Shown: in pieces, positions 48,190 to 49,200 of the stretch
Numbering within the stretch: position 1 is the first letter of the stretch
How the letters are laid out: each line of letters begins with the position of its first letter
Assembly (NCBI GenBank): GCA_000004695.1
Contig: CM000151.3
Coordinates: 2,272,001-2,336,000 of the forward strand
Direction: 5' to 3'
Length of the DNA: 64,000 nucleotides
Source of the DNA: Dictyostelium discoideum
Lineage: Eukaryota
Program-made: the position numbers and the translations under genes
Notes under the pieces: generated by a model
What the model saw: only the letters and a program-made list of their open reading frames with translations
Database searches by the model: none
What the model was told of the DNA's origin: nothing

Positions 48190-48206
48190 TAAAATTATTA
48201 TTATTA

Positions 48207-48297
<91 letters not shown>

Positions 48298-48440
48298 CAT
48301 ATTATTATTTATATTATTTATATTACTATCAGATTTAGGATCATAACTTAATTTTTCTTCTAAATTTTTAATAAATTGAACTATTTGTTTTATAACCCCA
48401 TTGTTTTTGTAATTTCTTTCAATGTATTTGTATTTGTATT
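48190..48440. repeat. Inverted duplicate of 42321..42600 (promoter-side sequence of the Cys-rich peptide gene plus its (AAT)n microsatellite)
   Basis: The reverse complement of 48300..48440 matches atacaaatacattgaaagaaattacaaaaacaatgg…gaaaaattaagYtatgatYctaaatctgatagtaa. An adjacent (TTA)n run at 48190..48300 mirrors the (AAT)n run at 42481..42600. Confidence 0.55.
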
Positions 48441-48479
48441 TATTGGTGTATTTGTTTCCATGATTAAATTTAAAAGTGG

Positions 48480-48785
48480 TATAAATACATCGATTCTATC
48501 GGTATTTAACAAATATTTCTAAAATTTGGTTATAAATATCTTGAGTATAAAATAATGGTGGATCTTGTAATAATTGTGTATATTTATTTTGATTGTGAAT
48601 TTGAAATTACATGTAGTATTTTTTTAAATATGTAACATTCATTTTCTTAAAGCATTGAGCTAATTCATTAAAATTAAAACCATTTGGAAATGTTTTTCAA
48701 TTACCATTTTATAAAATTAATAAAGAAATTAATCAACTACACCTTGATATTCATTTTTAATTCTAACATCTTGATAATATTCTGT
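48480..48785 (-). pseudogene. Degenerate ADF/cofilin N-terminal fragment (copy of the 5' half of 38809..39240)
   Basis: 48590..48785 aligns by eye to 38995..39195 (…gattgtgaatttgaaattacat…cattgagYtaattcattaaaatta…tttggaaatgtttt…ctacaccttgatatt…tttttaattctaacatcttgataatatt). It has indels and substitutions that break the frame, and it has no start codon. Confidence 0.5.
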
Positions 48786-48839
48786 GAACATTTAAATCTT
48801 AATTCTACTCTTGGTTTACTTTATCTAATTGGTGTTGTC

Positions 48840-48923
<84 letters not shown>

Positions 48924-49200
48924 TATATATATATATATTTTTAATAAAAAACCAAAATTTAATAAACAAAAAACAAAAAAAAAAATAATAATAATAATGA
49001 GGATGGTTTTTTTTTTGTTCGCCAATCACCAAAAAATGTCATAAGAAAAGTCTTAAAAACTAAAAATAAAATAAATAAAAAAATAAAAAAAAAAAAAAAT
49101 TTTTCTGCAAACATAATGTTGTGTAATTACTGGGCTCTTTAATTTTTTTCGAGCTATTTGCATGCCTTATCCCAATAAGGATGAAGATCGTTGTCTTTCA
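48776..49200. repeat. Diverged direct duplicate of 44455..44850 (copine 5' end plus upstream region)
   Basis: Shared blocks include gtgaacatttaaatctYaattctactctKggtttactt…ctaattggtgttgtcattatt, ggatggtttttttt, caaaaaatRtcWaWaaRaaagtctYRaaaactaaaaataaaa and aaacataatgttgtgYaattactggKtctttaat…tttttcgagctattYYcatRc. Confidence 0.55.
48841..48924. repeat. (TTTA)n microsatellite
   Basis: atttatttatttattt… occurs about 21 times and then (TA)n. Confidence 0.9.

Follow-up and report, generated by a model that had tools for sequence, protein, structure and literature searches.

A 1-kb patchwork on chromosome 2 of Dictyostelium discoideum AX4, at 48190-49220 of the window (the full 64,000-nt stretch analysed here), is probably the end nearest to LUD of a tandem duplication or amplification of the cofilin-2...cpnB neighbourhood that is specific to this lineage and has since decayed; it would have no function of its own. 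The homologies of its parts, their phylogenetic distribution, the positions of gene stumps in the same neighbourhood and a neutral-like mode of evolution are all directly observed and carry this reading.

Composition of the 1-kb region

The copine gene of the window is copine B (cpnB), the 558-aa ORF at 45791-47467 is DDB_G0272877, and the 143-aa cofilin encoded on the minus strand at 38809-39240 is cofilin-2 (COF2_DICDI; CDS of 432 nt), which is adjoined by cofilin-3 at 39642-40058. We compared this locus with L001, a separately produced assembly of this strain or of one nearly identical to it, and with L003, L002 ('D. cf. discoideum') and ACTFIZ (L012), whose CDS divergence from AX4 is ~2%, ~3.4% and 4.6-5.2%, respectively. 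ACTFIZ branches earliest, and the remaining strains form the tree ((AX4,L003),L002). The ACTFIZ comparison covers the side of the locus from gene X to cpnB. D. citrinum, D. dimigraforme and D. firmibasis served as outgroups. The parts of the region and their partners are as follows (positions in the window, with the strand where one applies):

38988-39185, minus strand: parental segment within cofilin-2 (gene 38809-39240)
41547-41580, minus strand: 3' stump left by a dead cpnB copy immediately behind gene X, in ancestral position; 28/34 identical to the stop region of live cpnB
42312-42610: secondary inverted copy, in the AX4 lineage, of block 1 and the microsatellite, lying in the 3' flank of cpnB; lacking in L002 and L003
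44462-44857, minus strand: 5' end of live cpnB plus 337 bp upstream ('copy L', the partner of block 3)
44858-48193: lineage-specific DNA between the two cpnB 5' copies, holding DDB_G0272877 and the orphan DDB_G0272879
48194-48329: (ATT)n microsatellite of ~46 units (TRF, BLAST); repeat half of an inverted-repeat pair with 42480-42640
48302-48435: block 1, unique and non-coding; 124/134 aligned bases identical to 42480-42319 inverted, with 28 gap bases
48436-48585: spacer of 150 bp; part, with block 1, the microsatellite and the orphan-gene region, of the junction DNA ('J_right')
48586-48782, minus strand: frame-broken cofilin-2 fragment, matching 38988-39185 (CDS nt 56-253, codons 19-85)
~48609-48636: second AX4-specific micro-inversion in the cofilin fragment
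48708-48736: AX4-specific micro-inversion of 29 bp in the cofilin fragment; its reverse complement matches parental 39109-39137 at 28/29
48783-48841, minus strand: cpnB 5' stump (CDS nt 1-59), matching 44462-44520; ATG at 48841-48839, TAA as codon 7 at 48823-48821
48841-48936: (TTAT)24 microsatellite in the leader of the dead copy (TRF); ~4 units in L003, none in the live copy
48842-49219, minus strand: cpnB upstream region in ancestral position ('copy R'), matching 44521-44857 at ~78-86%
49220-49348: distal part of the ancestral LUD-cpnB intergenic region, single-copy; aligns to D. citrinum, D. firmibasis and D. dimigraforme only on the LUD side

Self-comparison of 48190-49220 with low complexity masked returned four specific matches in the window. 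When the best-hit bit scores were set against those of 100 first-order Markov surrogates searched in the window, the four unique blocks gave z = 9.5, 28.5, 19.0 and 20.9, the value of 9.5 being that of block 1. The first-pass annotation had recognised three pieces with partners elsewhere in the window, and these indeed lie essentially where it had placed them. They are true paralogous fragments of cofilin-2, of cpnB and of a non-coding block, joined by rearrangement and not brought together by chance similarity; all three of its diagnostic unique strings occur in both partners, which sets the similarity apart from a merely AT-rich one.

The junction between cofilin and copine is as abrupt as had been described and falls at 48782|48783 (...cttgataatatt|ctgtgaacattt). 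L001 is identical at 1699 of 1701 positions over 47700-49400, and the fragment has the same junction (...GATAATATT|CTGTGAACAT) in L002 and L003 also, i.e. in four assemblies from three lineages in all. The change of TTA to TAA at codon 7 of the copied cpnB start is likewise common to AX4, L002 and L003. This recurrence of one junction in further lineages indicates that the fragment is not an assembly artefact.

Cofilin-2 is recognised by Pfam (Cofilin_ADF, E 5e-25). The cofilin piece is frame-broken and dead, as had been proposed, and the cpnB piece is dead too. What had been taken for the N-terminal half of cofilin comprises CDS nt 56-253, codons 1-18 being missing; similarly, the start codon of copine and ~340 bp upstream are present as claimed, together with 59 of the 73 nt of exon 1 and not the whole exon. 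The 68-bp match of 48783-48850 to the 5' end of live cpnB has 92.6% identity. Identity of the cofilin fragment to cofilin-2 is 87% as it stands and ~91% once the two AX4-specific micro-inversions are reverted, which brings the distance from 17% to 8.8%, in line with the fragments of L002 and L003. At the site of the 29-bp micro-inversion L003 has the parental orientation and L002 a deletion.

The remaining parts are non-coding. Microsatellite and block 1 together (48194-48435) match 42589-42319 in inverted orientation. The (ATT)n tract is also present, in shorter form, in L002 and L003, and block 1 occupies the 48.3-kb place in AX4, L001, L002 and L003 and is also found inside the units of ACTFIZ described below. 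No parent of the spacer was found in the window (z = -0.8) or in the fetched loci outside the D. discoideum complex; both ACTFIZ units (u1 and u2) conserve its right part. Both microsatellites of the dead copy have grown strongly in the AX4 lineage, with 24 units of (TTAT) against ~4 in L003, and 46 of (ATT) against ~11 in L003.

Ancestral gene order and the polarity of the copies

In the three outgroups the gene order is PCO_ADO gene, LUD-domain gene, cpnB, gene X, cofilin-3, cofilin-2, FNIP, with 441-660 bp between LUD and cpnB and 65-260 bp between cpnB and gene X. In AX4, L001, L002 and L003, ~4.8 kb lie between LUD and the live cpnB. The stretch 48783-50194 of AX4 forms one collinear HSP with D. 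citrinum, spanning the start of cpnB, the LUD gene and the intergenic region between them, indicating that the piece consisting of the promoter plus 59 nt holds the ancestral position; its distance of 507 bp from the LUD stop is comparable to that in the relatives. The live cpnB keeps ~337 bp of ancestral upstream DNA (44521-44857), beyond which lies lineage-specific DNA. From this arrangement the live cpnB appears to be the duplicate, and the LUD-adjacent fragment the copy in ancestral position, reduced to a dead 5' stump. The polarity is thus the reverse of that in the first-pass annotation, which had read block 3 as a copy of 44455-44850: it is 48783-49219 that is collinear with LUD as in D. 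citrinum.

Copies L and R cluster by copy and not by strain, with an L-R distance of 18-28% and distances of 24-33% to the outgroups. The duplication is therefore older than the split of the sampled AX4, L002 and L003, and younger than the split from D. citrinum. Between strains, copy L evolves about half as fast as copy R. Outgroup distances show copy R to be no faster than copy L, so that the rate gap is seen only between strains. Within the upstream region, the block AAACATAATGTTGTG(C/T)AATTACTGG (window 44700-44790 and 49105-49160) is conserved in both AX4 copies and recognisable in D. citrinum and D. firmibasis (L010, L008); it is a candidate cis-regulatory element of cpnB.

The polarity of the inverted pair is also reversed. 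The segment 42312-42610 is restricted to AX4 and L001; in L002 and L003 its place is taken by unrelated sequence, although both carry block 1 at 48.3 kb. Given the tree ((AX4,L003),L002), this points to one gain on the AX4 branch. The 42.3-kb copy thereby appears to be a late, inverted, templated patch, and block 1 at 48.3 kb the older of the two. It had been proposed that each piece has an intact original elsewhere in the window; this fails for 42321-42600, which is confined to AX4-type assemblies and is hence the later copy, and which, described as a promoter fragment, is equally the 3' flank of cpnB.

Probable array remnants and a model of duplication and erosion

Further remnants of the same genes are scattered through the locus. 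A cpnB 3' stump lies directly after gene X in every D. discoideum-complex genome examined, and those of L002, L003 and ACTFIZ are longer than 41547-41580 of AX4. The 3' end of gene X (41293-41517) is copied in the 3' flank of live cpnB in L002, L003 and ACTFIZ, preceded in L002 and L003 by a copy of the cofilin-2 upstream region (39347-39556). ACTFIZ has ~6 kb between gene X and cpnB, holding two units that are ~17% diverged. Each consists of part of the orphan region, (ATT)n, block 1 and spacer, joined to cofilin-2 from nt 253 to nt 1 with its upstream region, followed by cpnB 3' ends that are truncated; u1 has in addition the 3' end of gene X, copied between the cofilin-2 upstream region and the cpnB 3' piece. 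The cofilin piece of these units starts, to within ~25 bp of AT-rich sequence, at the spacer|cofilin boundary of AX4, and the cofilin fragments of all strains form one clade nested in the cofilin-2 of the D. discoideum complex.

This order is the one expected of tandem repeats of the form [cofilin-2 nt 253...upstream | X 3' end - cpnB - 337 bp upstream - junction DNA]. Since the boundary is common to ACTFIZ units whose cofilin runs past the AX4 breakpoint, the cofilin|cpnB junction is younger than the spacer|cofilin boundary; in terms of the array, the latter is an old repeat junction, and 48782|48783 a later deletion.

One truncated cpnB pseudogene of ACTFIZ (L012 1780-2720, reverse strand), which retains approximately 480 bp from the end of the CDS, with an insertion of 137 bp, is annotated as a 113-aa 'Copine' gene. 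We considered the truncated ACTFIZ copy D2 as a positional orthologue of the live gene of AX4 and rejected it, as the live copy of ACTFIZ has the same patch of gene X 3' end. A G-rich motif upstream of cofilin-2 (GGTCTTAACAAAAATAAAGTGTGGGAGATAAAAAT, 39435-39469) recurs in the duplicated patch of the L002 cpnB 3' flank and in the ACTFIZ units, its positions in L002 being 6465-6483 and 3173-3191; it may be a cofilin-2 promoter element.

The order and mechanism of the events that we infer are the following. After the D. citrinum split, a unit with one end at cofilin-2 nt 253 and the other ~337 bp upstream of cpnB, with cofilin-3 and gene X inside it, would have been duplicated. The repeat junction, today's boundary 48585|48586, would have held the junction DNA (orphan region, (ATT)n, block 1 and spacer). 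Deletions would then have eroded the copies: the one adjacent to gene X would have been left with the 3' stump 41547-41580 only, and the one adjacent to LUD would have lost cofilin nt 55 to cpnB nt 60 (the equivalent of 39186-44461). The latter loss would have created 48782|48783 at a short similar patch, AATGTCAACA in cofilin-2 and AATGTTCACA in cpnB, leaving the 5' stump and promoter, while the middle copy would be today's cpnB. Later, in the AX4 lineage only, the two micro-inversions would have arisen in the cofilin fragment, the microsatellites would have expanded, and an inverted copy of block 1 with (ATT)n would have been placed in the cpnB 3' flank. Deletions alone do not lead from a plain two-copy duplication to the AX4-type order. 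A stage with three copies, or else a circular intermediate, is needed, so that the model assumes several unobserved steps; a three-copy array with deletions and the re-insertion of a circular unit are both possible.

The region has the characters of duplicated pseudogenes: its cofilin, cpnB 5' and upstream pieces are direct copies that follow the order of the parental locus; it shows the TAA at codon 7 shared by the three lineages, truncations, a broken frame and neutral-like divergence; and the locus is single-copy in D. citrinum, D. dimigraforme and D. firmibasis. It also has those of a tandem-duplication remnant, namely the cpnB 3' stumps, the copies of the gene X 3' end and cofilin upstream region, and the multi-unit array of ACTFIZ. 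Non-processed pseudogene fragments of tandem arrays evolving by birth-and-death similarly keep parental order and orientation, are absent from outgroups, carry disabling mutations, evolve neutrally and occur as stumps that retain different ends of a gene. The present locus differs from them in having unrelated DNA (the orphan region and an imported gene) at the repeat junction, and in that the surviving functional cpnB is not in the ancestral position.

The same pieces could have been stitched together in one step, essentially as the first-pass annotation had it when it proposed a single non-homologous rearrangement. A break or collapsed fork near the 5' end of cpnB, followed by serial template switching (MMBIR/FoSTeS-like, or templated filler insertion), would have joined cofilin-2, the inverted cpnB 3' flank and the cpnB 5' end. 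All identifiable pieces come from less than 10 kb away, one of them is inverted, and the cofilin and cpnB exon pieces are similarly diverged from their partners (~7-9%). The cofilin|cpnB junction, the sole one with two known parents, shows an imperfect microhomology (an 8/10 similar patch, AATGT(C/T)(A/C)ACA, with one base unassigned). Short imperfect homology, micro-inversions and pieces from within a few kb are shared with FoSTeS/MMBIR products and templated filler insertions, and the inverted local copy at AX4 42312-42610, taken alone, resembles a single templated patch. However, that supposed template is younger than its supposed copy, and the junctions of the patchwork differ in age and were not all formed at once, as the spacer|cofilin boundary is common to ACTFIZ units in which cofilin runs past the ATG and the cofilin|cpnB-exon junction is lacking. 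Moreover, other parts of the locus contain cpnB stumps and gene X 3' copies, which suggest that a whole unit was duplicated. We thus regard a one-step origin as rather unlikely.

Within the tandem-duplication model, it is observed that in ACTFIZ every dead copy is found on the side of the live gene that faces gene X, and that in AX4, L002 and L003 the LUD-proximal copy is the dead one. Members of the complex might conceivably have kept different cpnB copies alive, a divergent resolution between cryptic lineages, and the promoter of the stump might feed DDB_G0272879; we put this forward as a speculative extension that is itself rather improbable.

Sequence evolution, function and the surrounding DNA

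Between strains the fragment shows 7-12% divergence and many indels, as compared with 5-8% for intergenic DNA (against L003) and 1-3% for CDS, i.e. it evolves like intergenic DNA. In all three lineages the reading frame of the copied cpnB start is closed by a stop at codon 7. In AX4 the cofilin frame has an ATG that arose at the junction and stays open from there for no more than 20 codons, and all frames are interrupted by stops over 48300-48850; the gene models predicted across the fragment differ from strain to strain, so that no functional chimeric gene is recognised.

The orphan gene DDB_G0272879 lies next to the patchwork (47732-48169, minus strand) and encodes 79 aa in AX4; the 115 aa called in L001 could not be reconstructed with canonical GT-AG introns. 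Searched against 1.84 billion protein representatives, it matched only itself. Its last exon is open in three strains, with in-frame indels of 6 and 18 bp, and its pN/pS is 0.35-1.2 on very few sites. A functional novelty can be imagined here, in which the cpnB promoter copy would drive a transcript through the dead pieces into this ORF, by promoter capture, de novo gene birth or as a regulatory non-coding RNA. The copy R promoter, the fragment and the orphan ORF follow each other in series on the minus strand, the ORF is open with its indels in frame, gene predictors joined the pieces into models of 139 and 180 aa in L002 and L003, and a 33-bp motif (AAACATAATGTTGTGTAATTACTGG...) is intact in copy R of AX4 and L003. 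However, this motif is deleted in copy R of L002, the orphan has no relatives among the protein representatives searched and a pN/pS drawn from very few sites, the fragment changes at the intergenic rate with frequent indels, and the predicted models do not agree between strains. We therefore consider such a novelty improbable, and on the sequences compared no function appears to be indicated for the patchwork.

Capture of the gene fragments by a transposon or by retroposition (Pack-MULE-, Helitron- or LINE-like) would also yield a patchwork of pieces from several genes, and D. discoideum is rich in mobile elements. However, we found no terminal inverted repeats beyond chance at the ends of the insert or of the donor segments, the best end-to-end inverted match being an AT-rich one of 20 bp that lies inside a micro-inversion and scores at the null median when re-tested against the cofilin locus. 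There is no short target-site duplication or poly(A) at the block ends, and the ~340 bp of upstream DNA included are non-transcribed. Retro-capture, which the first-pass annotation had entertained, is thereby excluded, and the wider reading is largely refuted and very improbable. No tRNA genes or Rfam families were found in 38-51 kb. Least probable by far, to the point of being negligible, is an assembly artefact or chance similarity: the genome is extremely AT-rich and microsatellite-rich, but z values of 9.5-28 for the unique parts and the identical structure in four assemblies from three lineages already refute it.

In the lineage-specific DNA between the two cpnB 5' copies, DDB_G0272877 with its own flanks occupies 45269-47630 on the plus strand (~520 bp on its 5' side and ~160 bp on its 3' side), and having brought these flanks it must have been relocated by a DNA-mediated route. 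Neither this gene nor the other lineage-specific DNA is found between LUD and cpnB in D. citrinum, D. dimigraforme or D. firmibasis. There its orthologues (92%, 85% and 77%, respectively) reside in another cluster (L004-L006), composed of 256-aa genes, paralogues and a lipocalin gene. In ACTFIZ the orthologue lies on a contig other than that of cpnB, shared with a paralogue. The D. discoideum assembly fetched for the old cluster (L011) has no DDB_G0272877 orthologue left; it keeps fragments of the family of ~350 bp (6677-7025 and 2623-2970), which we considered as a decayed donor and discarded, as they group with the local paralogue DDB_G0270088. The gene would have arrived as a copy from another chromosome. 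In Drosophila and plants, genes that were relocated through duplication followed by loss of the donor offer a parallel to DDB_G0272877, which sits beside cpnB in AX4, L002 and L003; it differs from such cases in being a neighbour of the patchwork and not part of it.

For the spacer (48436-48585), the orphan region (47631-48190) and the segment 44858-45268, blastn and tblastx against the window and the fetched loci returned no source. The 256/257-aa genes flanking the DDB_G0272877 orthologues are unrelated to the orphan region by tblastn, and a 20-bp match at 44884-44903, which might have been a remnant of cofilin at the insert's left end, is at chance level. Literature searches on DDB_G0272877, on cpnB or cofilin pseudogenes and on new Dictyostelium assemblies found nothing relevant.

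Cofilin-2, cofilin-3, cpnB, DDB_G0272877 and DDB_G0272879 each have two AX4 accessions or gene ids (e.g. DDB_G0272877 = DDB_G0274049), indicating that the window lies in the large chromosome-2 duplication of AX3/AX4 and that the locus, fragment included, is present twice in the reference. This duplication, recent and strain-specific, reproduces the entire locus intact. As the fragment is also found in wild-type lineages, it is not explained by the chromosome-2 duplication.

The locus is a well-resolved record of DNA gain and loss in a compact protist genome, with tandem amplification, import of a gene from another chromosome, deletions leaving complementary stumps, micro-inversions and templated patches. 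The patchwork itself would be a neutral relic of locus duplication and erosion and no new kind of element; its main use lies in annotation and in illustrating genome turnover in the D. discoideum complex. The cpnB annotated in the model strain would be a positional duplicate with ~337 bp of its ancestral upstream region, and the design of knock-outs, promoter constructs and PCR for cpnB or cofilin-2 should allow for the near-identical stretches at 48.6-49.2 kb and for the doubling of the locus in AX3/AX4.

Finally, a gene for a secreted Cys-rich protein lies at 41660-42055 on the minus strand, with 81-bp tandem repeats (CSFGYEACGNRCYSPSSGQRCYPG units) over 41668-41988 and no Pfam match. AX4, L001 and, in diverged form, L002 have it; L003, D. 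citrinum, D. firmibasis and D. dimigraforme lack it at this position, and four copies are scattered through the ACTFIZ locus.
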